Notes under the pieces: model-generated
The model's database searches: none
The model's input: the letters and a program-made list of their open reading frames with translations, nothing else
What the model was told of the DNA's origin: nothing
Assembly: GCA_028872875.1 (NCBI GenBank)
Contig: JAGWOC010000001.1
Location: 49,983 to 113,982, forward strand
DNA from: Chloroflexota bacterium
GTDB taxonomy: Bacteria; Chloroflexota; Dehalococcoidia; DSTF01; JACRBR01
DNA: 64,000 bases
Direction of reading: 5' to 3'
Made by a program: the position numbers and the translations under genes
Part shown: positions 14,770 to 54,575 of the stretch, in pieces
Position numbering within the stretch: position 1 is the stretch's first letter
Layout of the letters: each line of letters begins with the position of its first letter

Positions 14770-14796
14770 CGCCCCGATCCTAACCCACCCCGGCAC

Positions 14797-15313: not shown

Positions 15314-16594
15314 TCAGGGCGTCGTCTCGCGGCAGACGCCGGGCGTGTTGTCGACGTTGCCGTAGATCGTGTTGCCGCTCGGTATGACCGCGCCGGCGCG
15401 GTAGATGCAGATCGCCGAGCCGCGGTTATCGTAGATGCTGTTCCCCGTGATGTGCCCGAGCGACGTGTTCACGAACGAGACGCCGATGCCGCGGTTGTCG
15501 TGGATGCGCGAGTTCGTCACATCGAGGTTCGCGCCCTGCGCCAGCACGCCGCCGCCGAGCCGGCCCGTCTCCGCGAGCACCACGCTGTCGTGGATGTCGT
15601 TGTTGTTGATGAGGCCGACCGCGCGCACCGGGAAGTACGGGCCGACGACGCCGTACTTCAGCGGGTCCGGGTAAGCGCGGAACTCGATCGCGTGCTCCTC
15701 GTTGCCGCTGTACTCGTCGCCGTCGGACGACATGTTCGCGCCCCAGACGAAGAGCCCCGTGAGCTTGTTGCGCCAGATGTGGTTGTTGCGCATCACCCCG
15801 CGCGTGCCCGGGAACATCACGATGCCCGTGCTCCCGCTCGCCTGGATCACGTTGCTGTCGAGGATGATGTTCGCGTCGCCGACGAACGCCGGCAGGTCCG
15901 CGAGGTAGCAGACCGGCACGTCGACGAGGCCCGGCGGCAGGAGCGAGCACGGCGTCTGGCCGGCGAAGACGCCCGGGCCCTGGTTGTCGGAGATCACGTT
16001 CTGCACGATCGCCGTCGTCGCCGCTTCGCCGACCGTCGAGACGCCGACGCCGCCGTTCTGCACGATCCAGTTGCGCTGCACCACAAGGTTCGAGCGGCGC
16101 CGCACGAGCACCGCGTCCCCCGCCATCGCGTAGATGATCGAGTCGGTGATGCGGCCCACGCTGCCCACGTCGTAGTGGATGCCGATGCCACCGCCGCCCA
16201 CATCCATCTGCTGGAAGACGATGTTCTGGCTCTGCCAGACGTAGGCGTTCGAGGGGTGTCCGTAGAACAGCATGAAGTTCTCGAACGTCAGGTCCTGGCT
16301 GCTGAAGATCAGCATGCTGTCCTTCGTGCCGCCGGCGACGATCGTCTCGTGCCGCCCGGCGCCGCGCAGCGTGATGCCGGCCTTGTTCTGGAAGAGCAGC
16401 GGCGGGTAGACGCCGGGGGCCATGCAGATCACATCGCCCGGCCGCGCGGCGTTGATCGCCGCCTGGATGTCCGCCGGCCCGGCGTTGCGGGTGCACGCCG
16501 CGGCCGCGATGCGGTGCGCCGGCGGTGCGCCGAGCGCCGCCAGCGCGGCGACAGCAACCAGTGAGACAAGCAGGCACAGCCGCGTCCGCGTCAT
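15314..16594 (-). CDS. secreted right-handed parallel beta-helix repeat protein (pectate-lyase/NosD-like fold)
   Basis: ATG 16594 with GGGAGG upstream. Signal peptide MTRTRLCLLVSLVAVAALAALGAPPA. Many repeats of the type I.NN.I..N...G........I.GN are present. The first 34 codons of the track ORF are upstream junk. The alternative overlapping ORF 15426..16655 was rejected. Confidence 0.75.
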   Translation of the reverse strand: MTRTRLCLLVSLVAVAALAALGAPPAHRIAAAACTRNAGPADIQAAINAARPGDVICMAPGVYPPLLFQNKAGITLRGAGRHETIVAGGTKDSMLIFSSQDLTFENFMLFYGHPSNAYVWQSQNIVFQQMDVGGGGIGIHYDVGSVGRITDSIIYAMAGDAVLVRRRSNLVVQRNWIVQNGGVGVSTVGEAATTAIVQNVISDNQGPGVFAGQTPCSLLPPGLVDVPVCYLADLPAFVGDANIILDSNVIQASGSTGIVMFPGTRGVMRNNHIWRNKLTGLFVWGANMSSDGDEYSGNEEHAIEFRAYPDPLKYGVVGPYFPVRAVGLINNNDIHDSVVLAETGRLGGGVLAQGANLDVTNSRIHDNRGIGVSFVNTSLGHITGNSIYDNRGSAICIYRAGAVIPSGNTIYGNVDNTPGVCRETTP

Positions 16595-29908: not shown

Positions 29909-30547
29909 ATGGAGATCACCTGGCTTGGACACGCCTGCTTCCGCATCCGCGCGAAGGAAGCGACCGTCATCACCGACCCCTGCGACAGGTCGACGGGCTA
30001 CAGCCTCGGCCGCCCGTCCGCGGACATCGTCACCGTCAGCATCCACGACCGCGCGCATGACTACGCCGAGGGCGTCGCCGGCTCCCCGCGCGTGATCGAC
30101 GGCCCCGGCGAGTTCGAGATCGCGCACGCGTCGATCGTCGGCATCACCACGTACCGCGGCAAGGGACGGCAGGTCGAGTCCGGGCGCAACGTGGCGTACG
30201 TCATCGAGCTCGAGGACGTGCGCATCGGCCATCTCGGGGGCATCGGCCACGTGCCGACGTCGGACCAGCTCGAGGAGATGAGCAACGTCGATGTGCTGCT
30301 CGTGCCGGTGGGCGGCGGCGAGTCGCTCGACGCCCCGCCCGCGGCCGAGACGGTCAGCCTGATCGAGCCGAAGCTCGTGATCCCGATGCACTACAAGACG
30401 GACGTCGAGAAGACGAAGCTCGACCCTGTCGACCGCTTCCTGAAGGAGATGGGCGCCGCGGCGACCCAGCCCCAGGCCAAACTCTCCGTCACCCGCAGCT
30501 CGCTGCCCGGCGAGACGCAGGTGCTGGTGCTCGAGGTCAAGCGCTAG
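29909..30547 (+). CDS. MBL-fold metallo-hydrolase (UPF0173-type)
   Basis: MEITWLGHACFRIRAKEATVITDP...IHDRAHDYAEG...LLVPVGGGESLD is the UPF0173 metal-dependent hydrolase pattern. Confidence 0.7.
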   Translation: MEITWLGHACFRIRAKEATVITDPCDRSTGYSLGRPSADIVTVSIHDRAHDYAEGVAGSPRVIDGPGEFEIAHASIVGITTYRGKGRQVESGRNVAYVIELEDVRIGHLGGIGHVPTSDQLEEMSNVDVLLVPVGGGESLDAPPAAETVSLIEPKLVIPMHYKTDVEKTKLDPVDRFLKEMGAAATQPQAKLSVTRSSLPGETQVLVLEVKR

Positions 30548-30607: not shown

Positions 30608-31111
30608 TCAGTGCCCAACACCGCCGGCGCCCGCCGCCGGCGCCTGCCGGCCGCCCGGTTGCACAGCCTGCCCCGAGGCGGGCTCCATGCGCTGGCTCGC
30701 GGAGGATCCTGCGCAGCGGGGGCATACGCCGTAGAAGTCGAGCCGTTGCCCCATGACCTGAAAGCCGCTCGCCCTGGTCAACGTCTCTCGCAGGCTGGCG
30801 ACGGCCCCATCCTCGTCGATCCTGGCATCCGTGATACTGCTGCACTTGACGCAGATGAGGTTAGCGTGCAGCAGAGGGTTTGCGTCGTAGCGGGTACCGA
30901 GGCGAAAGTGGAGTGGCTGTACCAAACCCTTTTCGGACAGGACGTTCAGCGTGTTGTACACGGTCGCTCGCGTGATGTGCGGTACGTGCTGCCTGACACG
31001 CTCATACACGTCTTGAGCGGATGGATGATCGGTTGAGTTGGCAAGCACTTCTGCTACAGCCAGCCGCTGTGCGGTCACCCTGATACCCCGCTGCCTCAAC
31101 GTTGCAATCAT
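30608..31111 (-). CDS. Fur family transcriptional regulator (PerR/FurA-like; sits downstream of katG)
   Basis: TAQRLAVAEVLANSTDHPSAQDVYERVRQHVPHITRATVYNTLNVLSEKGLV is a winged-helix region. CVKCSS...CPRC are the two CxxC structural-Zn pairs. Confidence 0.85.
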   Translation of the reverse strand: MIATLRQRGIRVTAQRLAVAEVLANSTDHPSAQDVYERVRQHVPHITRATVYNTLNVLSEKGLVQPLHFRLGTRYDANPLLHANLICVKCSSITDARIDEDGAVASLRETLTRASGFQVMGQRLDFYGVCPRCAGSSASQRMEPASGQAVQPGGRQAPAAGAGGVGH

Positions 31112-31189: not shown

Positions 31190-33355
<2,166 letters not shown>

Positions 33356-33549: not shown

Positions 33550-33564
33550 TTAGAATCATTATAA
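33550..33564. promoter_or_regulatory. PerR/Fur-box-like operator TTAGAATCATTATAA upstream of katG
   Basis: 14 of 15 positions match the B. subtilis PerR-box consensus TTATAATNATTATAA. It sits in an AT-rich patch of the divergent katG / giant-surface-protein intergenic region. Confidence 0.6.
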
Positions 33565-33740
33565 AGGACTGCCATCGCTTGTCAAGCTGTGTGTGCCGGG
33601 ACACCATCGCATGCGTTACGTAATCTTTTCAGCGCGTCAACGGTTGCTGGCCTACAACCATTGCATTAGTCCGCTCAAAGAGTAGGATCGTCCCACCATC
33701 GTCGGAATGCTCTCACGGCATGGGGCCGAAACGAGGCGGC

Positions 33741-36700
33741 ATGTTCTCAGCACGCGCGTGTGCGGGGGCCCTTGCCCTCCTGGCCATCGGCGTCATCGTG
33801 GCGGGTGGCTCGCCCGGGCCCCTGCAGGGCGCCCGGCTGCCGGCCGCTGTTGCGGTAGCGCCGGCGGCGACGCCCGCCATACCCATGGTGGCTGTCGGCG
33901 GCCGGCACACCTGTGCGCTCAACAGCAACGGCGCCGTGCGCTGCTGGGGCCGCAACGCCGACGGCGAGCTCGGCGACGGCACGACGATCAGCCGGCAGCG
34001 CCCGGCCCTCGTCGCCGGCCTGAGCAGCGGCGTCACGGCGATCGCCGCGGGCTTCTCGCACACCTGTGCGCTGACCACCGGCGGCGGCGTCAAGTGCTGG
34101 GGCAGCAACGCCGACGGCGAGCTGGGCGACTTCACGCAGGTGAACCGATCGATGCCGGTCGACGTGATCAACCTAACGACCGGCGTCGTCGCCATCTCCG
34201 CCGGCGACCGCCACACGTGCGCGCTGCTGGCGGCCGGCGGCATGCGCTGCTGGGGCTACAACGTCTACGGCGAGGTCGGCAACGGCACCAGCGGCAACCT
34301 CTGGCTCGGCGCCGTCGACGTCTGCACGAGCGGCTCCGGCATTGGCTGCGCCGGCGGCGCGCCGCTCACCGGCATCGCATCGATGTCGGCCGGCGGCATC
34401 AACACCTGCGCCGTGACGACGGCCGGCGCCCTGAAGTGCTGGGGCGGCAACTACAGCGGCCAGTTGGGCCTCGGCATCCTGTCGGACAGCCCGCTGCCGC
34501 CCGGGGGCGTCTGTCCTACGTCCCCGGACGCCAACGCCACGTGCATCTCCCTTCCGACCGACGTCCCGAGCCTGCAGAGCGGGGTCGCGGCGGTCAACGC
34601 GGGCCAGACCGCGTGCGCGCTGACCACGGCCGGCGGCGTGATGTGCTGGGGGCTCAACAATGTGGGGGAGACCGGCAGTGGCATCGTGTCGCCCTGCAAC
34701 CCGAAGGTGCCGCCGCAGCCATACGTGGCGTGCGATCGCCCGCAGCCCGACCCGGCCGCTGTGAGCGGCCTGAGCAGCGGCGTCGCCGCGATCTCGGGCG
34801 GCTGCGCACTGCTGTTGACCGGCGGGGTGAAATGCTGGGGAGAAAACCTGTTCGGCCAGATCGGCGACGGCACGACAACCGTCCGGACGACGCCGGTGGG
34901 CGTGTTGGGCCTGGGGTCCGGCGTCGCATCGATCGGTCCGGGCCAAGACGCCGTGCACCACTGCGTCACGATGGCCGCGGGCGGCCTGAAGTGCTGGGGG
35001 TCGAACAGTTGGGGCCAGTTGGGCGCGACATCTGCCGACACTTGCTTTCTCGGCTTTGCCTGCAGCCTCGTGCCGATCGACGTGCAGCAGTGCACGATCT
35101 GCGTGCTCGACATGTCTTTCGAGCACCAGGTCTATCCCGACGAGGCCAACTGGGCGCCGGTCGCCGCGCAAGGGACGGTCGATGGCAACCAGGTGCGCGT
35201 CAAGGCGACGCTCCGGAACCAGGCGGGCACCGATCAGCCGGTCACGGTCGAGTTCCGTGACGCGGACACGGGTACGCTCCTGCCCGGCGGCTCGATCGAT
35301 GGCACGGTACCGGCGTCGGGCGAGTTACCCGTCACCTACGTCTGGAATACAGACGGTTTTGCCTGGGACGGCGGCGCCGCGCGCAGCCCCCGGCACGTCC
35401 GCGTCACCGTCCTGCAGGGCGCGACGACGCAGGACACCGACATCCGCGGCATCAAGATCGTCCCGAAGCCGGTCGTGCTGGTGCACGGCTGGAACAGCAA
35501 TTTCGGCACCTGGGCGTCATACCAGGGGTTCCTGACGTCGGTCAGCCCGGACTGGAAGGCGTTTGCTGTCGGCGACGGCCAGGCGCCCGGCGTCATGAAC
35601 ACGGGCTCGATGTCCCATCCCTTCACGCTGACCAACACCATCGACCAGAACGCCATCGAGATGTCGCAGTACGTGCACGGCGTCCGCCAACAGATGAACG
35701 CATGGCACGTCGATGTGGTCGCGCACTCCATGGGCGGGCTGATCTCGCGGGACTACATCCAGTACTGGATGCCGCCGGACGCGTATGCGCGTCCCGTCAT
35801 CGACCATCTCGTGATGCTCGGCACGCCGAACCAGGGCACCTCGTGCGCCGACCTCGGGGCGGCCATCCTTGGGCCGCTGGGAGCCGGCGCCTTCCTGTTT
35901 CCGGCGACCCTGCAACTCACCAAGACCTACCTCGCGATCTTCAACCAGCAGGTGACGAACCGCCGCGGCGTGAAGTTCTCGATTTCCGCAGGCGACCCGA
36001 TCCCGATCACTTGCCTCGAAGGTGCGGGCGACGAGATCGTGCCGTACCGAAGCGCCCTCATGCTCGACCCGCTGCCCGGGACGCCGATCACCGACTCGGA
36101 GTCGCGCTCGATCCTGCACCACCACATGCCGGGCGATCCGGGCCAGTTCAACCAGTTCGTCAAGCCGCGGCTCACCGGCGTCCTGCCAGCGCCCGCGGCA
36201 GCGTCGGCCGCTGGTGCGCACGCGCCCGTACGAGCTGTCGCCGCCGTTGCACCGCCGCCGGTCGTCGCGCCGCAGATCCTGGCGGGAGTCGGTGTCGAGG
36301 TCGCGGCCGGGGGGATGGCGGACGTGCCCTTCACGGTGACCGATGGCACGCGCATCGGTGTGACGCTGATCGCCGCGTCCTCGGTGACGACAGAGCTGCA
36401 CAATCCAGTGGGTACGGTCGCGGCCTCGGCCGCGGCGGGCAGCGACGCCGCGCAGGCGGGCCTGCGCACGCTCACGGTCGATACCCCCAGCGCCGGCGTC
36501 TGGACGCTGCACCTCGTGAACACGGATGGCGCCGCGCCGGCAGACGTCGCCGGGTCGGCGTGGGTCGACGGCAGCGCGGTGCAGCTCGTCCTCGCGCCGC
36601 CCACACCGGCTCCGGACGGCTCAGTCCCGCTCACCGCCACGCTCACCAACGGGGGCAGCGCGCTGGCGGGCGCCACCATCACGGCCATGCTCACGGGCGC

Positions 36701-39700
36701 CGACGGCCTGCACGGCCCGGCGACTCTGCTCGATGACGGGCTGCACGGCGACGGCGCGGCCGGCGACGGGATCTACGGCGGCACGACGGCCGCGCTAGCC
36801 CCCGGGCTTTACAGCGTCGCGGTACAGGCCACCGCCCCCGGCGTCTCGCGATTCACAACCGGCGCGGTCGAGATCGCGACCGCGGCCGCCACGCCCACAC
36901 CGACGGCCAGCGCGACCGCCAGCAGCACGCCGACAAGCGCCGCCACCGCCACACCCACGCCGACGGACACGCCCACCGCTGTGCCGACCGCGACCGACAC
37001 GCCGGCCGTCACCAGCACCGCGACGGCGACGCCAACGGCGACCGCGACGCCCTCGCTCGTGTACAACGTGAACAGCACCGCCGACGTCGTCGATGCGCAC
37101 CCCGGCGACGGCGTCTGCGCCACCGGGGCCGGCGAGTGCACGCTCCGTGCCGCGGTCATGGAGGCCAACGTCCAGTCGATCCGCGCCGGCATGCCGACGA
37201 TCAACCTCCCGGCGGGCGTCTACACGCTGACTCGCGGCCCGGCCGACGACATCCGCTTCGGGTCGGACTTCGTTGATTCGTCGGGCGACCTGGATCAGCG
37301 GAGCATGGCCATCCACGGCGCCGGTCCCTCCGCCACGATCATCGACGGCGGCCGCATCGACCGGATCTTCGAGGTGTTCGGTGACCACGTCACGATCAGC
37401 GGCGTCACGCTCCGCAACGGCGATGCGAAGCTTGCGGACGGGACGCAGACGGTCGGCGACGCGATCTTCGTCTACGGCCCCGGGAGTGCGAAGCTGTCGC
37501 TCAGCGACGCCGTCATCAGCGGCAACGGCGCCGGCGATGCCGCGATCGCGGTCAACGGCGCGCTCACGATCACCGACAGCACCATCGAGGGGAACGCCGG
37601 CGGCGGCATCCGCGTCGGGAACGGTTCGCTCTCCCTGCTGCGCAGCAGCGTCAAGGGCAACGCCGGCGCCGGCATCCGCACCGAGAATCAGTACGGCTTC
37701 GGGACCGCGACCGTCACGGACAGCACGATCAGCGGCAACCACCTCGGTGGTGACGGCGCGGGCGTCTGGAACAGCGGCGCGCTGACGCTCCTCCGCAGCA
37801 CCGTCAGCGGCAACACCGCCGGTGGCCGCGGCGGCGGCATCGCGAACTTTGGCACGGCGACGATCACCGACAGCACGATCAGCAGCAACGCCGCCGAGGT
37901 GGACGGTGGCGGCATCTTCAACGACTTCCCGCGCGCCGCGCACCTGACGCTCACGAACGTCACCGTCGCGCACAACCTCGCGGATAGCGACCAGACGGGC
38001 TCGGGCGACGGCGGCGGCGTCTACAATGGCGGCATCGGCACCGTTACGCTCACCAACACGCTCCTCGCCGCGAACACCGATGCGGGCGGAGAGGCGCCGG
38101 ACTGCGGCGGCTCGCTCGTGTCCGGCGGGCACAACCTCCTCCAGTCCTCAGCCAGCTGCGCGCTCTCGCCGCAGGCCGGCGACCGCATCGGCGTCACGGC
38201 CGCGCTCGGCCCGCTCGCCGACAACGGCGGCCCGACGTTCACCCACGCCCTCCTCGCGGGCAGCCCGGCGATCGACGCCGCCGACCCGCTGATGTGTGGC
38301 GCGACGGACCAGCGCAGCCGAGTCCGCCCCGTCGATGGCAACGCCGACGGCACCCCCGTGTGCGACATCGGCGCCGTCGAGTTCGACCCTGCGGACGGGC
38401 CGCCGGCGTCGCTGGCGCCGCCCCCGCCCGCACCGGCGCCGCTCGTCGCGTTCACCGTCGACAGCTTCGCCGACGGCGTCGACGCCGCGCCCGGCAACGG
38501 CGTCTGCGCGACGGCCGGCGGCGCCTGCACGTTGCGCGCCGCCGTCATGGAGGCGAACAAGCTCTCCGGCACGAACGTCATCAGGCTCGGCGCCGGCACC
38601 TACCAGCTCTCGATCCCGACGCTGGAGGTCTACGCCCCGGACGCCTCGCGGGGCGACCTTGACGTGTCCGAAGGGCTCGTCATCGAAGGCACGGGCGCGG
38701 CGGCGACCGTCATCGACGGTGGAGGGCTCGACGGCGTCATCAACAGCGGCGGGGTGCTGGAGCTCAAGGGACTGACGATCCGCAACGGCGCGCCGTCGCA
38801 CACCCCGGGCGGCGCCAGCGTCGGCGGCGGCGGCGTGGGCGCGCTCGTCCTGCTGCTCCAGGATGTGGACGCGACGGGGAACCAGGGCACCGCGGTCGGC
38901 GGCGGCTGGATCGTCGCACGCCGCATCCACGTCACTTCGAATAGCATCGGATCCGCGGTATCTACAGGGTACGGCTCGCTGTTCCTGGCCGACAGCATCG
39001 TCAGCGGCACGGCCTTCGGCGGCGGCATCACGACGAGCGTCCCGGCCGTGGTCCTCCGCTCCACCGTCACGGGAAACGCCCGGAGCGGCATCGACATCCA
39101 GGACGCGTCGGCCGACATCATCGACAGCACGATCAGCGGCAACCACGCCGACACGAGTGGTGGCGGCGTCGAGATTGGGTACGGCGACGTGCGCATCAGC
39201 GGCACGACCATCGACGGCAACAGCAGCACCGGCAGCGGCGGCGGCATCGACAACAACGGCACCCTCGTGCTCACCAACAGCACGATCAGCGGCAACAGCG
39301 CCAGCCAGTGGGGCGGCGGCCTGATCAACAACAATCTTGGCACGGCGACACTGCGCAACGTGACGATCACCGCCAACACGGCGCAAAGCGGCGGCAGCGC
39401 CTTCGGCGATGGCGGAGGCATCTACCAGAGCAGCATCCACGCGATCACCCTCGAAAACACGATCATTGCCGGCAACACCGACGCCGGCGGCCAGGCGCCC
39501 GACTGCTCGGGCACGCTCCCGTCGCCGTCCTACAACCTGATCGGCGACATGAGCGGCTGCACGATCGTCGGCACCAGCACGGCGAACATCCTCGGTCGGG
39601 CCGCCCGCCTCGGCCCGCTGCAGGACAACGGCGGGCCGACGCTGACGCACGCGCTGCTCGCCGGCAGCCCCGCCATCGACCAGGGCGGCGACGCCCTGTG

Positions 39701-40448
39701 CGCGCCGACGGACCAGCGCGGCGTCCGCCGCCCGATCGACGGCGACGGCGACGGCGTGGCGGCGTGCGACATCGGCGCCTTCGAGGCCCCAGCCGTCGCC
39801 GGCGCACCGACGGCAACACCCACGAGCACGCCAACCGCCACGCCAACCGCCACGGCGACGGACACGCCGGTGGCTACCAGCACGCCCACGTCCACCCTGA
39901 CGCCGCCCGCGACCAGCACCAGCACGCCGCCCGCCTCCGCAACCAGCACCGCGACGGATACACCGGTGCCGACCACGACCGCGGCACCCACGGCGACCGC
40001 CACAACCACGGCCGTGCACACCGCGACGGCCACAGCTACCTCCATCGCGACGAGCACGCCCACGCCGCCCGCCACCGCGACGGCCGTGCCCCCGGCGAAG
40101 GCGACAGCAAGCAGCACGTCCACCGTGACGGCGACGGCGACGCCCACGCCGGCGGGCTCGGCGGCACCGATCTACTCTGTCGCCACGGCGACCCCGTCAT
40201 CCGCTCCGGCGCCGAGCCCGTCGCCATCCGGCGCCACGCCCCGGGCGACCCCTACGCTGGTCAGTAGCGCGCTCGCCGCCACGGCACAACGCGGCGGCTC
40301 GGCGCCGGTTGCCGGTCTACCCAACACCGGCGCAGCACCGCCCAGGGCGTCCGCCGGGCCGCGCACATGGCTTATGGCGGCTGGCGTGCTCGCCCTCATC
40401 GCGCTCGCGGCCGCACACGCCGCGTCACGCGGGCGGCGCCGCCGCTAG
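33741..40448 (+). CDS. giant LPXTG-anchored multidomain surface protein: signal peptide, RCC1 propeller, beta-sandwich, LipA-type lipase domain, 2x CSLREA/beta-helix/choice-of-anchor-Q-like modules, T/P-rich linkers, LPNTG sorting signal
   Basis: Single ORF 33720..40448. ATG 33741 is preferred (GAGG 5 nt upstream; signal peptide MFSARACAGALALLAIGVIVAGG). RCC1-type repeats with recurring HTCAL...CWG.N..GELG. Lipase-like block PKPVVLVHGW...VDVVAHSMGGLISRDY (AHSMGG at 35721-35738). Two modules begin GDGVCAT..C.LRAAVMEAN (37138-37170 and 38526-38558) and end GGPT.THALLAGSPAID...TDQR...RP.DG..DG...CDIGA(V/F)E (38361-38384 and 39766-39789). C-terminus LPNTG (40317-40331) + AAGVLALIALAAAHAA + RGRRRR. 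Confidence 0.85.
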   Translation: MFSARACAGALALLAIGVIVAGGSPGPLQGARLPAAVAVAPAATPAIPMVAVGGRHTCALNSNGAVRCWGRNADGELGDGTTISRQRPALVAGLSSGVTAIAAGFSHTCALTTGGGVKCWGSNADGELGDFTQVNRSMPVDVINLTTGVVAISAGDRHTCALLAAGGMRCWGYNVYGEVGNGTSGNLWLGAVDVCTSGSGIGCAGGAPLTGIASMSAGGINTCAVTTAGALKCWGGNYSGQLGLGILSDSPLPPGGVCPTSPDANATCISLPTDVPSLQSGVAAVNAGQTACALTTAGGVMCWGLNNVGETGSGIVSPCNPKVPPQPYVACDRPQPDPAAVSGLSSGVAAISGGCALLLTGGVKCWGENLFGQIGDGTTTVRTTPVGVLGLGSGVASIGPGQDAVHHCVTMAAGGLKCWGSNSWGQLGATSADTCFLGFACSLVPIDVQQCTICVLDMSFEHQVYPDEANWAPVAAQGTVDGNQVRVKATLRNQAGTDQPVTVEFRDADTGTLLPGGSIDGTVPASGELPVTYVWNTDGFAWDGGAARSPRHVRVTVLQGATTQDTDIRGIKIVPKPVVLVHGWNSNFGTWASYQGFLTSVSPDWKAFAVGDGQAPGVMNTGSMSHPFTLTNTIDQNAIEMSQYVHGVRQQMNAWHVDVVAHSMGGLISRDYIQYWMPPDAYARPVIDHLVMLGTPNQGTSCADLGAAILGPLGAGAFLFPATLQLTKTYLAIFNQQVTNRRGVKFSISAGDPIPITCLEGAGDEIVPYRSALMLDPLPGTPITDSESRSILHHHMPGDPGQFNQFVKPRLTGVLPAPAAASAAGAHAPVRAVAAVAPPPVVAPQILAGVGVEVAAGGMADVPFTVTDGTRIGVTLIAASSVTTELHNPVGTVAASAAAGSDAAQAGLRTLTVDTPSAGVWTLHLVNTDGAAPADVAGSAWVDGSAVQLVLAPPTPAPDGSVPLTATLTNGGSALAGATITAMLTGADGLHGPATLLDDGLHGDGAAGDGIYGGTTAALAPGLYSVAVQATAPGVSRFTTGAVEIATAAATPTPTASATASSTPTSAATATPTPTDTPTAVPTATDTPAVTSTATATPTATATPSLVYNVNSTADVVDAHPGDGVCATGAGECTLRAAVMEANVQSIRAGMPTINLPAGVYTLTRGPADDIRFGSDFVDSSGDLDQRSMAIHGAGPSATIIDGGRIDRIFEVFGDHVTISGVTLRNGDAKLADGTQTVGDAIFVYGPGSAKLSLSDAVISGNGAGDAAIAVNGALTITDSTIEGNAGGGIRVGNGSLSLLRSSVKGNAGAGIRTENQYGFGTATVTDSTISGNHLGGDGAGVWNSGALTLLRSTVSGNTAGGRGGGIANFGTATITDSTISSNAAEVDGGGIFNDFPRAAHLTLTNVTVAHNLADSDQTGSGDGGGVYNGGIGTVTLTNTLLAANTDAGGEAPDCGGSLVSGGHNLLQSSASCALSPQAGDRIGVTAALGPLADNGGPTFTHALLAGSPAIDAADPLMCGATDQRSRVRPVDGNADGTPVCDIGAVEFDPADGPPASLAPPPPAPAPLVAFTVDSFADGVDAAPGNGVCATAGGACTLRAAVMEANKLSGTNVIRLGAGTYQLSIPTLEVYAPDASRGDLDVSEGLVIEGTGAAATVIDGGGLDGVINSGGVLELKGLTIRNGAPSHTPGGASVGGGGVGALVLLLQDVDATGNQGTAVGGGWIVARRIHVTSNSIGSAVSTGYGSLFLADSIVSGTAFGGGITTSVPAVVLRSTVTGNARSGIDIQDASADIIDSTISGNHADTSGGGVEIGYGDVRISGTTIDGNSSTGSGGGIDNNGTLVLTNSTISGNSASQWGGGLINNNLGTATLRNVTITANTAQSGGSAFGDGGGIYQSSIHAITLENTIIAGNTDAGGQAPDCSGTLPSPSYNLIGDMSGCTIVGTSTANILGRAARLGPLQDNGGPTLTHALLAGSPAIDQGGDALCAPTDQRGVRRPIDGDGDGVAACDIGAFEAPAVAGAPTATPTSTPTATPTATATDTPVATSTPTSTLTPPATSTSTPPASATSTATDTPVPTTTAAPTATATTTAVHTATATATSIATSTPTPPATATAVPPAKATASSTSTVTATATPTPAGSAAPIYSVATATPSSAPAPSPSPSGATPRATPTLVSSALAATAQRGGSAPVAGLPNTGAAPPRASAGPRTWLMAAGVLALIALAAAHAASRGRRRR

Positions 40449-40481: not shown

Positions 40482-41675
40482 TTACGGCAGATAGTCGAGC
40501 GGGTTCTCGCGCACGCCGTTGTCGATCACTTCGAAGTGCAGGTGGCGGCCCGTCGAGTAGCCGGTCGAGCCGATAATCCCCAGCTCCGCGCCCTGCGCCA
40601 CCTGCTGTCCCTGCGTCACCGCGATTGAGCTGAGGTGCGCGTACACCGTCTCGATGCCGGCCGCGCTCTTTACGATCACATACAGCCCGTACGAGCAGCA
40701 GGCGTTGCCGCCGGCGAATACCACAGTGCCGCTCGTCGCCGCCGCGACCGGCGCGCCTGGCAGGTTGAAGCCATCGATGTCGATGCCGAGCGGGTGCGAT
40801 GGACCGTAGTAGCTCGAGATCGGTCCGACGACCGGCCAGATCAGCCCGTGCGACGACTTCGGCCCGCCCCGTACCGCCGCGCCGCCGCCCGACGGGCTCG
40901 TGCTGCCCCCGCCCGATGGCGCAGGCGTCGGCTGCGGCTCCGGTGCCGGTGACGCTGCACCCGCCGGCCCGGCAACAGGGCCCGGTGCCGGTACCTTCCC
41001 GCCTGGCACGAAGAGCAGTTGCGTTTCTTTGATGTTGTCCGCCGCCGCGATGTGGTTCGGCGCAAACGATGTGATGGCAGACACCTCCACGCCGAAGCGC
41101 GTCGCAATGTCGCTGAGCGTCTCGCCATACCGCACCTCGTGCAGGATGCCGTTGCCCGCCGGTACGATGATCGACTGGCCGAGCTTCAGGAAGTTCGAGT
41201 CCTGGATCTCGATGTTGTTGGCGGTAATGTACTGCGGCTCGATCCCGAAGCGCGCGGCGATCGCGGTCACCGTGTCGCCCGCCTGAACCTGGTAGACCTG
41301 GTACGGCGGCAGGTCGGGCGGTGGCGCCACGCTGGCCGCACGGACCGCCGCGCCCTCATCGGGCAGCGGCGCCGGCGGCGGCGACGGTGCTGGCGTCGGC
41401 GATGCGCTGAGGGACGCCAGTTGCTCAGCCACCTGCTGCGCCTGCGCGGGCGGCGCCTGTGCGGCGCGTAGTGTCCGGGTGAGCGCGCTTGCCCGCACCA
41501 CGGTGTCCTGCGCGGGGGGGACGCTCGAGCCAACGCCCGGTAGCGACAGGCCTGTGACGGGCGCGGCGAACGCCTGCGATCGGCCCGGTGCACGCGGACC
41601 GAACATCATGGCGTAGCCAGCAGCGAGCAGGATCAACGCCAAGACCAGGCCGTGCACATACGGCCGCCGCTGCAC
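40482..41675 (-). CDS. M23 family metallopeptidase with two LysM domains and an N-terminal TM anchor
   Basis: GTG start. Two LysM blocks (YQVQAGDTVTAIAARFGIEPQYITANN...LGQSIIVP and HEVRYGETLSDIATRFGVEVSAIT). A C-terminal M23 domain carries HGLIWPVVGPISSYYG...GIDIDG...GYSTGRHLHFEV. Confidence 0.85.
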   Translation of the reverse strand: MQRRPYVHGLVLALILLAAGYAMMFGPRAPGRSQAFAAPVTGLSLPGVGSSVPPAQDTVVRASALTRTLRAAQAPPAQAQQVAEQLASLSASPTPAPSPPPAPLPDEGAAVRAASVAPPPDLPPYQVYQVQAGDTVTAIAARFGIEPQYITANNIEIQDSNFLKLGQSIIVPAGNGILHEVRYGETLSDIATRFGVEVSAITSFAPNHIAAADNIKETQLLFVPGGKVPAPGPVAGPAGAASPAPEPQPTPAPSGGGSTSPSGGGAAVRGGPKSSHGLIWPVVGPISSYYGPSHPLGIDIDGFNLPGAPVAAATSGTVVFAGGNACCSYGLYVIVKSAAGIETVYAHLSSIAVTQGQQVAQGAELGIIGSTGYSTGRHLHFEVIDNGVRENPLDYLP

Positions 41676-43944: not shown

Positions 43945-44646
43945 TCAGCCTGGGGCGATGAGATTGCGGCCCTCGATCCGCCAGCCAGGGGGCAGCGTTG
44001 CGGCGATGAATGACACGCGCGGCACCGGCGGCCAGAAAAACGGGCGCAGGTTCGCCTCGCGCGTGTAGTCGAAGCCGCTGCGCTCGGCGAGCCCCATCAG
44101 GCTCTGCTGCGTAGCGTGGCGGCCGGGGTAGCGGCGCAGCCAGAGGCGCTGCCACCAAGCGAAGCGGCCTGCCGGCGGGGCAAGATCCCACGCCAGCATC
44201 AGTGCCCCCGGCCGCAGCACGCGTGCGGCCTCGCGCAGTACCGCTTGGGCGCCGCGGACGTCGAGGAAGCGCAGCAGGTCGTCGCAGTACACGACGTCGA
44301 ACGCACCGTCCCGAAACGGCAGCGCGTCCGGCCCCGCGAGCACCGCCGTTGCCGGCCGCCCGTTGTCGAGAAAGGCGCGCTCGGCCCGCCGGGCGAGCTT
44401 CGGCGAAGGCTCGACGCCGGCCGCGGAGACGCCCTGGAAGCGGAGCTTCTGGTCGAAGAGCAGGATCCGGCTGCCCGCGCCGCAGCCGATCTCCAGCATG
44501 CGGGTGTCCGCCTGCATCAGCATCTCGCGAGGCAGCGAGTACGCGGGCGGGTTGGAGAACATCTGCCCGGGGACGGACTGCAGGAAGCGCCGCCACCACG
44601 AGCCCGCGAGCTGCCGCTCGCGCTCGGCGATCTGGTCGGGAGTCAT
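43945..44646 (-). CDS. class I SAM-dependent methyltransferase
   Basis: [15 protein letters not shown] (motif I) ... [13 protein letters not shown] ... LRPGALML. Confidence 0.75.
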
Positions 44647-44829
44647 CGGGGGAAGGGTAGGGGATCGGTGGGAAGCGGCAACCCGGCGCGGCGCACCTCG
44701 GAGGTGTGGATATGGATACCAGTGCGCGATCGGGTCATATCACGGCGTCAATACGGTCCGCATGACCGACTTCATCTCCCTGCTCACTGCGGGCTGACGC
44801 CGACCGCGCGAAGAGGCGCGGGTTATACA

Positions 44830-45888
44830 ATGCGCGCGATGGCAAAGAAGGAATCCCAGCCAGAGCGCGTCGTCGCCGGCGAGCCGCAGGACGGTGACCT
44901 CCTGGTCGATACGTCGCTGCGGCCGAAGCGCCTCGGCGAATACATCAACCAGCAGAAGGTCAAGGACAACATCGCCATCAGCATCGAGGCGGCGCGCCAG
45001 CGCGGCGAGCCGCTCGACCATGTGCTGCTCTACGGGCCGCCCGGGCTCGGCAAGACGACGCTCGCCTACATCATCGCCGCCGAGATGCAGGTCAGCATCC
45101 GCGTTACGTCGGGCCCGGCGATCGAGCGCATCGGCGACCTTGCCGCGGTCCTCACCAGCCTGCAGCCCGGCGACGTGCTCTTCATCGACGAGATCCACCG
45201 CCTGTCCCGCGTCGTCGAGGAGTTCCTCTACCCCGCGCTCGAGGAGTCGGCGATCGACTGGGTCACCGGCAAGGGGCCCGGCGCGCGCTCGATCCGCCTC
45301 GCGATCAAGCCGTTCACGCTGATCGGCGCGACGACGCGCTACGCGATGATGTCGCCGCCGCTCCGCGACCGCTTCGGCGGCGTCTACCGGCTCGACTTCC
45401 ACGACGTGGATGCGCTCTCCCAGATCATCCGGCGCTCCGCGTCCATCCTCGGTGTGCCGGTCGATGCCGCCGGCACGACGGCGATCGCGCAGCGCGCGCG
45501 GGGGACGCCGCGCGTCGCCAATCGGCTCCTGCGCCGCGTCCGCGACTACGCCCAGGTGAAGGCCGACGGCGCCATCACTGCGGCCGTCGCCGCGGAGGCG
45601 CTCGCCCGGCTCGAGATCGACGAGCTGGGCCTCGACAGCGTGGACGAGCGCGTCCTGCGCACGATCATCGAGAAGTTCGAGGGTGGGCCCGTCGGGCTGG
45701 AGACGATCGCGGCATCGATCTCCGAGGACGCCGACACGATTATGGACGTGTACGAGCCGTATCTCCTGCAGCTCGGCTTCATCCAGCGCACGCCGCGCGG
45801 CCGCCAGGCGACCCGCCGCGCCTACGAACACCTCGGGATCGCGCCCCGGGCCGGCGCCCCCGCCCCGCAGCGAGCGCTCTGGGAGTAG
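44830..45888 (+). CDS. ruvB: Holliday junction branch-migration helicase RuvB
   Basis: ATG 44830 (MRAMAKKES...). Walker [15 protein letters not shown], Walker [11 protein letters not shown], sensor region, and a C-terminal winged helix. The upstream part of track ORF 44116..45888 is antisense junk. No ruvA is adjacent. Confidence 0.95.
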
Positions 45889-51877: not shown

Positions 51878-53125
51878 ATGATCACGAGGCGCGATTTCGT
51901 GAAGAAGGGCGTGGCGCTGGTCACGCTGGGAAGCATGCACGCGATGCTGCCGCCGGTGTTCAAGGGCGCGTTCGCGATCCGCGCGTCGGACGCCGAAGCG
52001 GACACGCTGCCGGCGCGCACGCTCGTCATCCTGCAGTTCGCGGGCGGCAACGACGGGTTGAACACCGTCGTGCCCTATCGCGACCCCGCCTACGCGAAGG
52101 CGCGACCGTCGATCGGCGTCAAGGCGGACGCCGTGTTGGCGCTCGATGACCATGTCGGCCTGCACCCGAAGCTCGCGGGCCTGAAGAAGCTGTGGGACAG
52201 CAAGAAGCTCGCGGTGGTGCAGGGTGTCGGCTACCCGGACCCGAACCTCTCGCACTTCCAGTCCATGCTGATCTGGGAGAACGCCGGCCGGCAGGCGGCA
52301 AACGGCGAAGGGTGGCTCGCGGGCTACCTCGACCGCCTCGAGGCGGAGGAGCACGACCCGCTGCACGGTTTCAACGTCGGGCAGTTCGTGGCGCCGGAGC
52401 TGTACGCGGCCAACGCGCCCACTGTCGCCGCCCCGAGCGCAAACGCGTACGGCTTCCAGCGCCTGGCCCCGGACGAGGCGGAGGCGCGCCGGCGCCAGAC
52501 CGCGCTGCTGAAGATGTACGAGCAGTTCCCGAAGGACACGCCGTACGCCGCGCTGCTCGAAAGCACGGCCGGCGACGCCGTCTCCAGCTCGCAGGCGGTC
52601 GACGCGGCCGCGACCGCGCACACCCCCACCGTGGCATACCCGGAGACCTCGCTCGCGAGCGGGCTCAAGCTCGTGTCGCAGGTGATCGCCAGCGGGGCGA
52701 AGCTGCGCGTCGCGCACGTGACGCTCGGCGGCTTCGACACGCACTCCGGCCAGCAGCCGGAGCAGGAGAAGCTGCTCGGCGACGTCGGCGACGCGCTCGC
52801 CGCCTTCTATGCGGACCTCGCGTCGTACGGCAAGGACGGCGACGTGCTGACGATGACCTGGTCCGAGTTCGGCCGCCGCGTGCAGGAGAACGCGAGCCAG
52901 GGCACCGATCACGGCACCGCCGCGCCGATGTTCCTCGTCGGCGGCAGCGTCAAGGGCGGGCTGTACGGCGAGGCGCCGTCGCTGACGAGCCTCGATAACG
53001 GCAACCTGAAGTTCACGACGGACTTCCGTTCGGTGTACGCCACGCTGCTCGAACAGTGGTGCGGCGCCCCCGCCGATGCCATCCTCGGCGCCCACTACCC
53101 GCAGATCGGCGGGCTCGTGGCGTAG
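51878..53125 (+). CDS. DUF1501 family protein with Tat signal (sulfatase-like fold)
   Basis: GAGGAGG lies 6 nt before ATG 51878. MITRRDFVKKGVALVTLGS is a Tat signal. LVILQFAGGNDGLNTVVPY...GGFDTHSGQ...QGTDHGTAAPMFLVGG are DUF1501 signatures. Confidence 0.65.
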   Translation: MITRRDFVKKGVALVTLGSMHAMLPPVFKGAFAIRASDAEADTLPARTLVILQFAGGNDGLNTVVPYRDPAYAKARPSIGVKADAVLALDDHVGLHPKLAGLKKLWDSKKLAVVQGVGYPDPNLSHFQSMLIWENAGRQAANGEGWLAGYLDRLEAEEHDPLHGFNVGQFVAPELYAANAPTVAAPSANAYGFQRLAPDEAEARRRQTALLKMYEQFPKDTPYAALLESTAGDAVSSSQAVDAAATAHTPTVAYPETSLASGLKLVSQVIASGAKLRVAHVTLGGFDTHSGQQPEQEKLLGDVGDALAAFYADLASYGKDGDVLTMTWSEFGRRVQENASQGTDHGTAAPMFLVGGSVKGGLYGEAPSLTSLDNGNLKFTTDFRSVYATLLEQWCGAPADAILGAHYPQIGGLVA

Positions 53126-53257
53126 GGGCGCAGCTTGCCGCGCCCCGGTCCGGCCCCCGGCCGCTGTGTGCCGTGCCCGACCCATTGGTGTGGCTGTTAC
53201 GGCCGCCTCGCGTAGGGGCGCTGCTTGCCGCGCCCCGGTCCGCCGCCCGGCCGCTGT
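53121..53257. repeat. two copies of a 47-bp direct repeat (53121-53167 and 53211-53257; 44 of 47 identical), each containing a GC hairpin GGGGCGC-agcttgc-CGCGCCCC and starting with CGTAG
   Basis: Read directly. The first copy starts at the TAG stop of the DUF1501 gene. No U-tract follows either hairpin. Confidence 0.8.
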
Positions 53258-53297
53258 TCGCGGCCCCCTCCGCGGTCCGCACCAGCGGCGATCGGCT

Positions 53298-54575
53298 ATG
53301 CTGTCGCCGATGCCGCGCGAAGCTGCGAAGTATCGGATCACCGGTGGCCACCGGCTGCACGGCCGTGTGCACATCAGCGGCTCCAAGAACGGCGCCGACT
53401 ACGCGATGGCGGCCGCGCTCCTCACCGCCTCCGACGTCGTGCTGCACAACGTGCCCGAGATCGGCGACGTGCGCCAGATGGAGGAGATCCTCGCGCACCT
53501 CGGGGCCACGGTGGAGCACCCGGCGCCGCACACGCTCCGGATCAACGCGGCGGACCTGTCGCGCTTCGAGGTGCCGGCGCGCCTCGCGGCGCAGCTCCGC
53601 GCCAGCTTCCTCGTGATGGGGCCGCTCCTAGCGCGCATGGGCCGCGCGTCCTGCCCGCCGCCGGGCGGCGACGCCATCGGCATCCGCCCGCTCGACGTAC
53701 ACCTCGCCGGCTTCCGCATGCTCGGCGCCACCGTCGAAGAGGACGGCCAGGCCTTCGACGTGCGCCTCGACGGCCCCCTGCGCGCCGGCCGCGTGCTGCT
53801 CGACTACCCGAGCGTCATGGGCACGCTCAACGTCATGCTCGCCGCGACGCTCGCCGATGGTGCCACGACGATCATCAACGCGGCGAGCGAGCCCGAGATC
53901 GCCAGCCTGGCACAGATGCTGAACGCGATGGGCGCGAACATCACCGGCGCCGGCTCCAACGTCGTGCGCATCGAGGGCGCCCGCGCGCTCGGCGGTGTCG
54001 AGCACCGCGTCATCCCGGACCGGCTCGAAGCCGGGACCTTCGCGCTGGCGGCGGCGATCACGCGGGGCGAGGTGTTGCTCGAGGACGCGGTCCCGGAGCA
54101 CCTGGATGCGCTGCTCTGGAAGATGGAGGAGGCAGGGGCCGCCGTGCGCGCCACCGAGGCCGGACTGCACGTCGCCGGCGCCGTGCGCTACCGCGCCGTG
54201 AGCGCGCAGGCGCTGCCGTATCCGGGCCTCGCCTCCGACCTGCAGCCGCAGCTCGCGGCCTTCCTCACCCAGGCCGAGGGCGCCAGCACGATCCACGAGC
54301 GCGTCTTCGACAACCGGCTGCTGTACATCAGTGAGCTGCGCAAGATGGGCGCGGACGTCATGGCGACGGGCACCACGGCCATCATCACGGGGCCGACCCA
54401 GCTTCGCGCCGCACCTGTCACCGCGCTCGACGTGCGCGCCGGCAGCGCCTGCGTCCTCGCCGCGCTCGTCGCCGAGGGGACGACCGAGATCAGCGATGTC
54501 TACCACATCGACCGCGCGCACGAGGACCTTCATGGTAAACTGCGCGCGCTCGGCGCCTCGATCGAGCGCGCCTGA
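53298..54575 (+). CDS. murA: UDP-N-acetylglucosamine 1-carboxyvinyltransferase
   Basis: ATG 53298 (MLSPMPREAAKYRITGGHRLHGRVHISGSKNGA...). Catalytic Cys in GRASCPPPGGDAIGIRPLD. Full-length EPSP-synthase fold. The upstream part of the track ORF is translation of the repeat region. Confidence 0.93.
   Translation: MLSPMPREAAKYRITGGHRLHGRVHISGSKNGADYAMAAALLTASDVVLHNVPEIGDVRQMEEILAHLGATVEHPAPHTLRINAADLSRFEVPARLAAQLRASFLVMGPLLARMGRASCPPPGGDAIGIRPLDVHLAGFRMLGATVEEDGQAFDVRLDGPLRAGRVLLDYPSVMGTLNVMLAATLADGATTIINAASEPEIASLAQMLNAMGANITGAGSNVVRIEGARALGGVEHRVIPDRLEAGTFALAAAITRGEVLLEDAVPEHLDALLWKMEEAGAAVRATEAGLHVAGAVRYRAVSAQALPYPGLASDLQPQLAAFLTQAEGASTIHERVFDNRLLYISELRKMGADVMATGTTAIITGPTQLRAAPVTALDVRAGSACVLAALVAEGTTEISDVYHIDRAHEDLHGKLRALGASIERA

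Follow-up and report, generated by a model that had tools for sequence, protein, structure and literature searches.

A predicted surface protein from a Dehalococcoidia-class Chloroflexota bacterium joins an RCC1-like propeller, a probable lipase/esterase and two beta-helix modules

The analysed stretch of DNA, a window of 64 kb, carries on its forward strand a single unbroken open reading frame (ORF; 33741-40448, stop codon at 40446-40448), which encodes a protein of 2,235 aa. A second in-frame ATG lies further upstream, at 33720; the spacing of a GAGG motif (33733-33736), 4 nt 5' of the ATG at 33741, favours the latter as the start. The gene and its product are divided as follows.

33661..33740, + strand: conserved block directly 5' of the giant gene, with the GAGG (59/80 = 74% identity to the ortholog locus L001)
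33741..33833, + strand: predicted N-terminal signal peptide, MFSAR + hydrophobic ACAGALALLAIGVIVAGG + SPGPLQGA (from the translation)
33879..35120, + strand: seven-bladed RCC1-like beta-propeller, aa 47-460 (Pfam models and DNA repeats)
35121..35456, + strand: beta-sandwich N-terminal to the hydrolase, cassette domain 1, aa 461-572 (AF2 model)
35457..36188, + strand: alpha/beta-hydrolase (lipase/esterase) domain, aa 573-816 (profiles, family alignment, fold matches)
36189..36269, + strand: flexible linker rich in Ala and Pro, connecting the hydrolase to the later beta-sandwiches, aa 817-843 (pLDDT, composition)
36270..36884, + strand: two beta-sandwich domains, aa 844-1048, matching BlEst2 domains II-III
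36882..37091, + strand: Thr/Ala/Pro linker 1, aa 1048-1117 (composition, tandem and direct repeats)
37092..38384, + strand: beta-helix module 1, aa 1118-1548 (TIGR04214, NF041518, PF13229, rung repeats)
38385..38456, + strand: short Pro/Ala linker joining modules 1 and 2, aa 1549-1572 (composition)
38457..39788, + strand: beta-helix module 2, aa 1573-2016
39789..40316, + strand: long Thr/Ala/Pro/Ser linker 2, aa 2017-2192, 176 aa (composition)
40317..40448, + strand: sorting-signal-like tail and stop, LPNTG (40317-40331), 13-residue spacer, hydrophobic LMAAGVLALIALAAAHAA, SRGRRRR (from the translation)

Beyond the conserved block, upstream identity to L001 falls to about 50%. The signal peptide region is also found in the ortholog P0002, and orthologs with the same head are encoded by independent assemblies, so the gene is no assembly or frameshift artefact. 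The same orthologs rule against sequencing errors splitting the frame into several genes, a concern raised with the original prediction; the uninterrupted ORF with a signal peptide that it described was found as expected, and the motif positions it gave are all correct to within one to three bases at most. What is encoded is a real protein of an uncultured bacterium, predicted to be secreted, in which a propeller, a probable lipase/esterase unit and two beta-helix modules are carried on a cell-wall-type anchor.

The propeller is recognized by three Pfam profiles, all above their cut-offs (WD40_RLD, 173.4 bits, cut-off 150; RCC1_2, 136.2, cut-off 22; RCC1, 83.8, cut-off 21.7). Seven RCC1 repeat copies, spaced 153-207 nt apart, are present on the DNA level (repeat family D3), in agreement with the at least seven repeats proposed earlier. 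One blade loop (aa 301-360) differs between orthologs.

The propeller is followed by a cassette of four domains, namely a beta-sandwich, the alpha/beta hydrolase and two further beta-sandwiches, the last of which harbors a choice-of-anchor X motif (NF041940, a 37-residue motif, at aa 995-1030; 43.5 and 48.6 bits, cut-off 25). In the AF2 model of the cassette (pLDDT 85, pTM 0.85), the beta-sandwich segment previously noticed ahead of the hydrolase is modelled confidently (strands E25-E112, pLDDT mostly above 88), and this domain is conserved throughout the cassette family. The Ala/Pro linker shows pLDDT below 50 (residues 358-381 of the modelled core) and is variable in the family consensus. 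The hydrolase displays PKPVVLVHGW (35463-35492) and AHSMGG (35721-35738), the latter forming the elbow H662-S663-M664-G665-G666 (A-H-S-M-G, aa 661-665), with the codons for Ser663 at 35727-35729, for Asp764 at 36030-36032 and for His793 at 36117-36119. In a family alignment of 38 sequences, H-S-M-G-G, D764 and H793 are invariant; Cys702 and Cys758 are near-invariant, as would be expected for an extracellular enzyme. AHSMGG is present in 187 of 248 cassette proteins, and the elbow Ala (AxSxG) in 201 of the 235 family members having a recognizable elbow.

Judged by profile comparison, the hydrolase is best assigned to DUF7379 (PF24096; 45.4 bits for the whole protein and 49.6 for the isolated domain, cut-off 33), the match spanning profile positions 40-119 of 191 only. 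The score of Lipase_2 (PF01674) is marginal (21.0 bits for the whole protein, 26.3 for the domain, cut-off 20.3), and this match is confined to profile positions 2-95 of 219, i.e. the N-terminal half. These scores and fold matches to lipases bear out the proposed alpha/beta hydrolase with AHSMGG; true lipases outscore phospholipases in the fold comparison, and the domain is probably an active lipase/esterase. The 630-residue cassette aligns as a whole (33-48% identity over 75-97% of the length) to proteins of 700-1,000 aa from Acidobacteriota, Actinomycetota, Sphingomonas and Roseiflexaceae. It is widespread, with 291 cluster representatives at E<=1e-30, and is found both stand-alone and within other giant proteins, where its partners are M36 peptidase, PKD, cadherin-like and DUF11 domains. 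Among the known systems, most proteins listed as DUF7379, 'esterase/lipase family protein' or 'choice-of-anchor X domain-containing protein' are likewise stand-alone or joined to other partners. No literature on DUF7379 or the cassette family was found, and a search on choice-of-anchor domains returned irrelevant texts only (PMC13269358 deals with choice-of-anchor D).

The closest solved structure to the cassette is the propeptide form of BlEst2, a lipase of Bacillus licheniformis (PDB 6wpx; mature form, 6wpy), in which a catalytic domain is followed by two beta-sandwiches in the same overall arrangement. Identity between the two amounts to 16-17% only, and sequence likeness is detected in the catalytic domain only; features of the window cassette not shared with BlEst2 are a further beta-sandwich at its N-terminus, the choice-of-anchor X motif and its placement inside a protein of 2,235 aa. 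LipA/EstA of Bacillus subtilis (family I.4; PDB 1i6w and others) and Lip_vut1 (6nkc) are also among the closest known systems. The family profile compared with the PDB yields LipA at E 3e-11, aligned over residues 5-106 only, and BlEst2 at E 2.8e-8. LipA is a lid-less single domain of 181 residues, and minimal enzymes of family I.4 measure about 180 residues (19-20 kDa) and have no accessory domains, whereas the hydrolase described here comprises ~245 residues and always occurs with flanking beta-sandwiches. The suggested relationship to Bacillus LipA and family I.4 therefore stands for the AxSxG signature and for the likeness in the N-terminal half and elbow, but the domain is no minimal LipA enzyme, and the closest fold is that of three-domain BlEst2 in its propeptide form, not the LipA-like one proposed for the lipase region.

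C-terminal to the cassette, linker 1 leads into two beta-helix modules. Each begins with a CSLREA-type N-cap (37104-37169 in module 1, 38493-38558 in module 2), whose motif is spelled C-T-L-R-A-A here, and finishes with a choice-of-anchor Q C-cap, which ends in CDIGAVE in module 1 (38361-38381) and has CDIGAFE in module 2 (39765-39785). CSLREA_Nterm (TIGR04214) matches two stretches with 45.8 bits in total and module 2 alone with 29.8 (cut-off 25), and choice_anch_Q (NF041518, roughly 58 residues) matches two stretches with 77.8 and 86.4 bits separately and 144.2 in total (cut-off 25). Module 1 scores 65.2 bits with the Beta_helix profile PF13229 and has the features of a right-handed parallel beta-helix, with rungs of about 25 aa and DNA repeats 75-78 nt apart (families D2/D4). 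The two CSLREA/beta-helix/choice-of-anchor-Q modules of the original prediction are thus substantiated by NCBIfam and Pfam profile scores, and its long Thr/Pro linkers by composition. An assembly duplication as the origin of the two modules was rejected, since their mutual identity is only 42%.

Sequence homologues of the modules are Rhombotarget A of Acinetobacter baumannii (RbtA, PDB 9cdu) and the CSLREA/choice-of-anchor Q family. RbtA is type II secreted and is a rhombosortase target with a GlyGly-CTERM signal. It consists of a single module and comes from a Gram-negative organism, whereas here two tandem modules form part of a larger polypeptide whose tail is of the LPXTG type; the literature yielded no report on what RbtA does. 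LPXTG-anchored adhesins with beta-helix binding regions are known from Gram-positive bacteria in PfbA (S. pneumoniae, 3zpp) and SRRP (L. reuteri, 5nxk). Both lack an enzyme and an RCC1 domain, and LPXTG models recognize their sorting signals, in contrast to the tail of the window protein.

Every part of the protein falls into an already named family; the combination is rare, and the protein is a new assembly of known parts. RCC1 is found in 8 of the 248 cassette proteins and RCC1 plus a beta-helix module in five. RCC1, cassette and beta-helix occur together in five proteins and one genomic locus, with all named sources being Chloroflexota/Dehalococcoidia MAGs, and one such relative is already labelled 'CSLREA domain-containing protein'. 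The combination, which had not been recognized when it was first noticed, is accordingly rare but not unique. The closest loci among GTDB species representatives are 83% and 67% identical. The syntenic ortholog shares the same head and anchor and has a different middle. Identity to P0002 collapses from linker 1 onward and is back at 75-80% from about aa 2076, within linker 2. For the middle of another mosaic relative, P0031, a metalloprotease identity suggested by an HEFGH motif was rejected, since no Pfam, NCBIfam or PDB match was obtained.

The neighbouring genes are housekeeping genes (katG, a PerR-like gene, LysM-M23, Obg and RuvB). The neighbourhood is syntenic at the ortholog locus, but katG and the PerR-like gene are absent there, and conservation of the spacer is limited to the 80 bp adjoining the start of the giant gene. 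A strong promoter and a PerR-type box in the intergenic spacer face katG. A regulatory region shared with katG, as originally supposed, was rejected on these grounds; because the syntenic ortholog lacks katG, the adjacency appears to be incidental.

We consider it more likely than not that the protein is a Sec-exported, C-terminally tethered mosaic surface lipase/esterase with binding modules, made by a peptidoglycan-containing Chloroflexota bacterium of the Dehalococcoidia class. All domain calls are confirmed, and the evidence supports the original view of a lipolytic hydrolase or adhesin tethered to the surface. The LPNTG-type tail would fasten the protein to the envelope, with sortase-mediated wall linkage as the likeliest means, and the 176-residue Thr/Pro-rich spacer would provide passage through and past the wall. 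The two RbtA-type right-handed beta-helix modules may then serve as a rigid stalk and/or as putative glycan- or surface-binding elements, presenting a distal head composed of the seven-bladed RCC1 propeller (putative ligand binding) and the four-domain lipase/esterase cassette. The latter is predicted to be a Ser-Asp-His hydrolase capable of catalysis and belonging to the LipA/BlEst2 lineage. Its substrates would be lipid carboxyl esters or other hydrophobic esters in the vicinity of the cell, and the producer could capture the products of their cleavage. The protein seems to have been built by shuffling of cassettes, with low-complexity linkers as the points of exchange; its near relatives retain head and anchor but have other middle modules or other anchors.

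One rival view concerns the mode of attachment. The tail has the layout of an LPXTG pentapeptide, a hydrophobic segment and a positive C-terminus, and the LPNTG, hydrophobic stretch and RGRRRR described earlier are all present; the label of a 'textbook' sortase signal does not hold, given that no LPXTG anchor model (NCBIfam, Pfam) matches the C-terminal 86 residues at E<=1, LPXTG_double being the sole hit with 13.5 bits (cut-off 48), and that 13 residues precede the hydrophobic stretch. A plain membrane tether, in which a hydrophobic helix with an Arg-rich stop-transfer segment retains the protein and LPNTG stays unprocessed by sortase, would account for the missing model match and for this unusually long Pro- and Arg-rich spacer. 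It is also in keeping with the search for sortases: the T[LIV]x[TS]C motif, looked for in six frames of the 64-kb window and in the loci L001-L012, was found in spurious ORFs only, in accordance with the original statement that the window has no sortase gene, and literature on Chloroflexi sortases consisted of general or speculative texts only. Sortase genes, however, mostly do not lie next to those of their substrates. Moreover, LP[NS]TG at the same place before a hydrophobic stretch and an Arg-rich tail recurs in three relatives (LPSTG in P0002, LPNTG in L005), other cassette proteins have LPVTG or LPRTG tails, and the organism makes peptidoglycan, as follows from two genes of the window, murA (486 bits, cut-off 392.7) and one for a LysM-M23 peptidase. 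An attachment by the membrane alone is hence regarded as rather unlikely.

The remaining alternatives concern the enzyme. As a refinement compatible with the main reading, the protein might be a tethered zymogen, in which the two beta-sandwiches after the hydrolase cover the active site as in BlEst2 and the enzyme is switched on when a protease cuts the Ala/Pro linker (aa 817-843). Since the anchor is C-terminal, such a cut would also free the RCC1-lipase head from the cell. For BlEst2, autoinhibition by the C-terminal domains and activation through proteolysis are reported, as cited in a 2024 paper; if inhibition of this kind applied here, the intact protein would lack activity while tethered. 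The pTM of 0.85 of the four-domain model suggests a fixed interdomain packing, and the linker between hydrolase and C-terminal sandwiches is variable and of low pLDDT. Against this, the likeness to BlEst2 in sequence is restricted to the catalytic domain, neither a protease nor a cleavage motif came to light, and in another esterase a C-terminal beta-sandwich does not inhibit the enzyme but aids the binding of long acyl chains (PMC10816834); the refinement is given a fairly low probability. Contact-dependent antagonism or predation, with a phospholipase head attacking neighbour membranes while propeller and helices provide target contact, is quite improbable: the better scores of true lipases speak against it, no immunity-like gene is adjacent to the gene, whose housekeeping neighbours are syntenic in the ortholog, and the enzyme is internal, in contrast to its C-terminal place in typical polymorphic toxins. 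Most of the mass does consist of the propeller, beta-sandwiches, beta-helices and linkers, parts of a repeat or binding type, as would suit a structural adhesin or envelope protein with the hydrolase as a non-catalytic relic. Yet a family from several phyla shows no or almost no variation in the elbow, the Asp, the His and the PVVLVHG oxyanion region, which makes a dead enzyme highly improbable, and this reading was rejected on account of the triad invariant in the 38 sequences.

Besides the favoured reading of a tethered surface lipase/esterase, a broader and more speculative model, which we hold to be unlikely, may be put forward. A Chloroflexota lineage would possess a conserved display scaffold, consisting of RCC1 head, RbtA-type stalk, Thr/Pro spacer and LPXTG or dockerin-like anchor, into which enzyme cassettes are swapped through recombination at low-complexity linkers; in the present protein, a BlEst2-like lipase would be displayed as a wall-tethered zymogen, and a cut in the Ala/Pro linker would release it together with the propeller. 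If true, Chloroflexota would have a so far undescribed surface enzyme system that is modular and triggered by a protease. These bacteria are abundant and mostly uncultured, and the surface exposure of their enzymes is little understood. Current ideas are not overturned by the present findings, whose worth lies in annotation and in the choice of constructs for biochemistry. They single out a cassette (DUF7379 plus choice-of-anchor X) that is widespread and lacks a literature that could be found, with a clear triad and a plausible BlEst2-like regulation, and provide a candidate substrate of the LPXTG type from a phylum with a debated envelope biology. They also offer natural evidence that cassette, propeller head, RbtA-type modules and anchors are swapped as units among close relatives.

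The giant protein is encoded on the plus strand by a single open frame running from 33720/33741 to a stop codon at 40446-40448. As the original prediction held, translation from the ATG at 33741 proceeds without a break, giving 2,235 residues. GAGG lies four bases 5' of this ATG, and the N-terminus of P0002, the ortholog protein at locus L001, begins to align in the N-terminal region of the giant protein, so that a start at 33741 is reasonable. The GC content is ~70% throughout the window, with the composition unbroken at the giant gene. The motifs were recovered at the predicted coordinates, each exactly or within one to three bases:

35463-35492, plus strand, PKPVVLVHGW (translation)
35721-35738, plus strand, AHSMGG (translation)
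ends at 37169 and 38558, plus strand, two C-T-L-R-A-A-V-M-E-A-N motifs (translation)
38361-38381, plus strand, CDIGAVE (translation)
39765-39785, plus strand, CDIGAFE (translation)
40317-40331, plus strand, LPNTG (translation)

The N-terminal part is an RCC1 propeller: RCC1-type Pfam models match aa 47-460 well over threshold, and the blade core occurs in exactly seven DNA copies (spacing 153-207 nt), in line with the at least seven repeats expected. A propeller loop (aa 301-360; window 34641-34820) shares ~35% identity with P0002, compared with 85-95% elsewhere in the head (propeller plus hydrolase cassette). By alignment it is a local hypervariable patch, which could act as a ligand-contact surface.

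The propeller is followed by the hydrolase cassette. The isolated hydrolase segment is best matched by DUF7379 (49.6 bits, cut-off 33), and Palm_thioest (28.9 bits vs 26.8) and Lipase_2 (26.3 bits vs 20.3) also exceed their cut-offs; PGAP1, DUF676 and LCAT stay under theirs on this segment. In a homology search with aa 460-1090, the hydrolase was never found alone, and the 630-residue stretch forms a single unit ordered as beta-sandwich, hydrolase, variable linker, and two beta-sandwiches, with the choice-of-anchor X motif last. An exhaustive HMMER search of 1.84 billion cluster representatives yielded 616 matches at E<=1e-10, 291 of them at E<=1e-30. Identities of 33-48% were found with hundreds of proteins from Acidobacteriota, Actinomycetota, Sphingomonas, and Roseiflexaceae, named in their sources 'esterase/lipase family protein', 'alpha/beta fold hydrolase', or 'choice-of-anchor X domain-containing protein'. 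Across 38 aligned sequences, H-S-M-G-G is invariant, as are single Asp and His residues, and two Cys are near-invariant (Ser663, Asp764, His793, Cys702, and Cys758 in the window protein). Since the AHSMGG elbow is present in 187 of 248 fetched cassette proteins, the AxSxG nucleophile signature was read correctly and is a trait of the whole cassette family.

AlphaFold2 models the cassette with confidence (pLDDT 85, pTM 0.85); confidence is low for the post-hydrolase Ala/Pro linker, for a short loop (core residues 255-259), and for the Thr/Pro tail. In a Foldseek comparison with the PDB, the propeptide form of the Bacillus licheniformis lipase BlEst2 is the top match (E 2.7e-18 over 526 columns; TM 0.57 when normalised to BlEst2), followed by Streptomyces MAS1, metagenomic LipC12, Janibacter MAJ1, and Pseudomonas/Burkholderia lipases. 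By sequence, the family profile finds both B. subtilis LipA (E 3e-11, LipA residues 5-106) and BlEst2 (E 2.8e-8). The proposed LipA/family I.4 affiliation thus holds for the N-terminal half and the nucleophile elbow, whereas the multi-domain lipase as a whole unit resembles BlEst2 and is no minimal I.4 enzyme. BlEst2 is reported to be autoinhibited and activated by proteolysis; in a different esterase, by contrast, a C-terminal beta-sandwich aids the handling of long acyl chains (PMC10816834), and the beta-sandwiches here may have either role. The segment with the choice-of-anchor X motif (NCBIfam; aa 995-1030, 36723-36830) gives a weak, non-significant match (E 0.013) to TIGR00868, the model for the calcium-activated chloride channel regulator CLCA, and a preprint sets the inhibitory domains of CLCA1 against BlEst2 domains II-III; a distant kinship among these regulatory-type beta-sandwiches is conceivable.

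Both predicted CSLREA/beta-helix/choice-of-anchor-Q modules were confirmed. NCBIfam models detect two CSLREA N-terminal motifs, and the choice-of-anchor Q domain is likewise found twice (144 bits combined). In scans of the single modules, module 1 additionally matches Pfam Beta_helix (65 bits), and module 2 matches the NCBIfam caps only; the AlphaFold2 model of module 2 (36 sequences; pLDDT 84.7, pTM 0.88) is a right-handed beta-helix with ~25-residue rungs. The modules share 42% identity over ~450 residues, which is consistent with duplication long ago or with two independent acquisitions and not with an assembly artefact. The module-family profile matches Rhombotarget A (RbtA, PDB 9cdu; E 2.1e-13), including the CSLREA cap and the C..DQRG..CDLGAIE end, making RbtA the sole solved member of the family. 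RbtA is described as an Acinetobacter baumannii cell-surface protein (PMC12643943), and the substrates of type II secretion in Acinetobacter include a 'CSLREA domain-containing protein' (PMC9245377); no reported function of RbtA was found in the literature. From the fold, we infer possible module roles in binding, as a stalk, or in glycan processing.

P0002 (2,075 aa; assembly GCA_040960095.1 and independent ENA and Logan assemblies) is the syntenic ortholog. Its locus encodes, in order, 2-phosphosulpholactate phosphatase, RpiB, a metallo-beta-lactamase-fold protein, the giant protein, LysM-M23, Obg, and, further on, RuvB; the window has the same neighbors, with katG and a Fur-family gene added between the metallo-beta-lactamase-fold gene and the giant gene. 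The RuvB frame in the window (44116-45888, plus strand) spans 590 aa with RuvB domains from residue 268, and RuvB at the ortholog locus has 352 aa; translation probably begins at an internal start. At L001, a MazE/PIN toxin-antitoxin pair lies directly upstream of ruvB.

Apart from the propeller loop, aa 1-1080 are ~85-95% identical to P0002. Identity collapses from the first Thr/Pro linker and returns (75-80%) in the last 160 residues, including the LPSTG tail of P0002. In between, P0002 harbors one beta-helix module without a CSLREA match, then an unrelated repeat region. These repeats (aa 1560-1880; L001 ~14680-15640), in place of module 2, have propeller-like units, '..ASGD..PLRT..G..T.L..P..', and gave no match in Pfam or NCBIfam scans. 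Other relatives vary likewise. The protein of locus L005 (Dehalococcoidia MAG, 67% identity) joins this head to a single CSLREA/beta-helix/Q module and has an LPNTG tail; P0008 and P0009 carry the head, one module, and C-terminal dockerin-like DxNxDGRVD repeats; in P0086, Ig-type domains follow the head. P0031 (another Dehalococcoidia MAG; partial, 1,268 aa) combines the same propeller (87% identity) with a module sharing 67.5% identity with the first part of module 1, and an unrelated ~600-residue stretch with an HEFGH motif (aa 450-1040) replaces the lipase cassette; this region has no Pfam, NCBIfam, or PDB match and may be an uncharacterised metalloprotease cassette. Further giant proteins join the cassette to M36 peptidase, PKD, cadherin-like, or DUF11 domains; LPVTG or LPRTG tails occur in some of them. 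These differences in modules and anchors mark the window protein as one outcome of a continuing shuffling of cassettes at linkers of low complexity. Among the 248 cassette proteins, eight carry RCC1, eight a beta-helix module, and five both; the combination, unrecognised at first, is rare but not unique, its named sources being only Chloroflexota/Dehalococcoidia MAGs. The window protein is the only two-module case among the combinations seen.

Thr/Ala/Pro-rich linkers of 70 and 176 residues are present, and a 24-residue Pro/Ala stretch separates the modules. The tail consists of LPNTG, 13 residues, an 18-residue hydrophobic stretch, and SRGRRRR, and LP[NS]TG with a hydrophobic stretch and Arg-rich tail recurs in three relatives. 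The layout is that of a sortase signal, but not the supposed textbook one: the spacer is long, LPXTG anchor models do not match the tail, and no sortase is encoded in the 64-kb window, as predicted, or in the fetched flanks of homologous loci. A wall to attach to is indicated by murA (53076-54575, plus strand; score over the equivalog cut-off) and a LysM-M23 peptidoglycan endopeptidase gene adjoining the giant gene (40482-41675, minus strand), from which it follows that this Dehalococcoidia-class organism makes peptidoglycan, unlike the wall-less Dehalococcoides. Sortase-mediated wall linkage would be the likeliest interpretation, the alternative being a plain C-terminal membrane anchor.

On its other side, the giant gene is separated from katG by 415 bp:

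29909-30547, metallo-beta-lactamase-fold gene
30608-31111, minus strand, Fur/PerR-like gene downstream of katG
31190-33325, minus strand, katG
33550-33564, palindrome TTAGAATCATTATAA overlapping the promoter -10 element (0.02 matches expected by chance)
33585 to 33558, minus strand, sigma-70 promoter with perfect consensus (TTGACA-16-TATAAT) pointing towards katG

The predicted promoter and palindrome serve katG. The palindrome differs by a single mismatch from the PerR box of B. subtilis, TTATAATNATTATAA, and probably acts as a katG operator responsive to peroxide; PerR is the best-scoring model for the Fur-family protein, yet under the NCBIfam cut-off (104 bits vs 180). The katG/PerR-like pair is missing from the otherwise syntenic L001 of the closest sequenced relative, so that the pair was either inserted or deleted between the giant gene and the metallo-beta-lactamase-fold gene. 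A regulatory region shared with katG was not borne out, as katG-less L001 conserves only the 80 bp by the giant start (74% vs ~50% further upstream). The divergent layout is an indel accident and does not argue for co-regulation.

Each part of the giant protein falls into a named family, and in Chloroflexota mosaic surface proteins of giant size are common. A BlEst2-like zymogen mechanism, drawn by analogy, would be an attractive though rather unlikely refinement. The reading favored with moderate confidence is that a Ser-Asp-His lipase/esterase would be displayed on the cell surface by a propeller-plus-beta-helix scaffold, tethered through an LPXTG-type tail and built by cassette exchange, which makes the earlier guess of a surface-anchored lipolytic adhesin or hydrolase a reasonable one.
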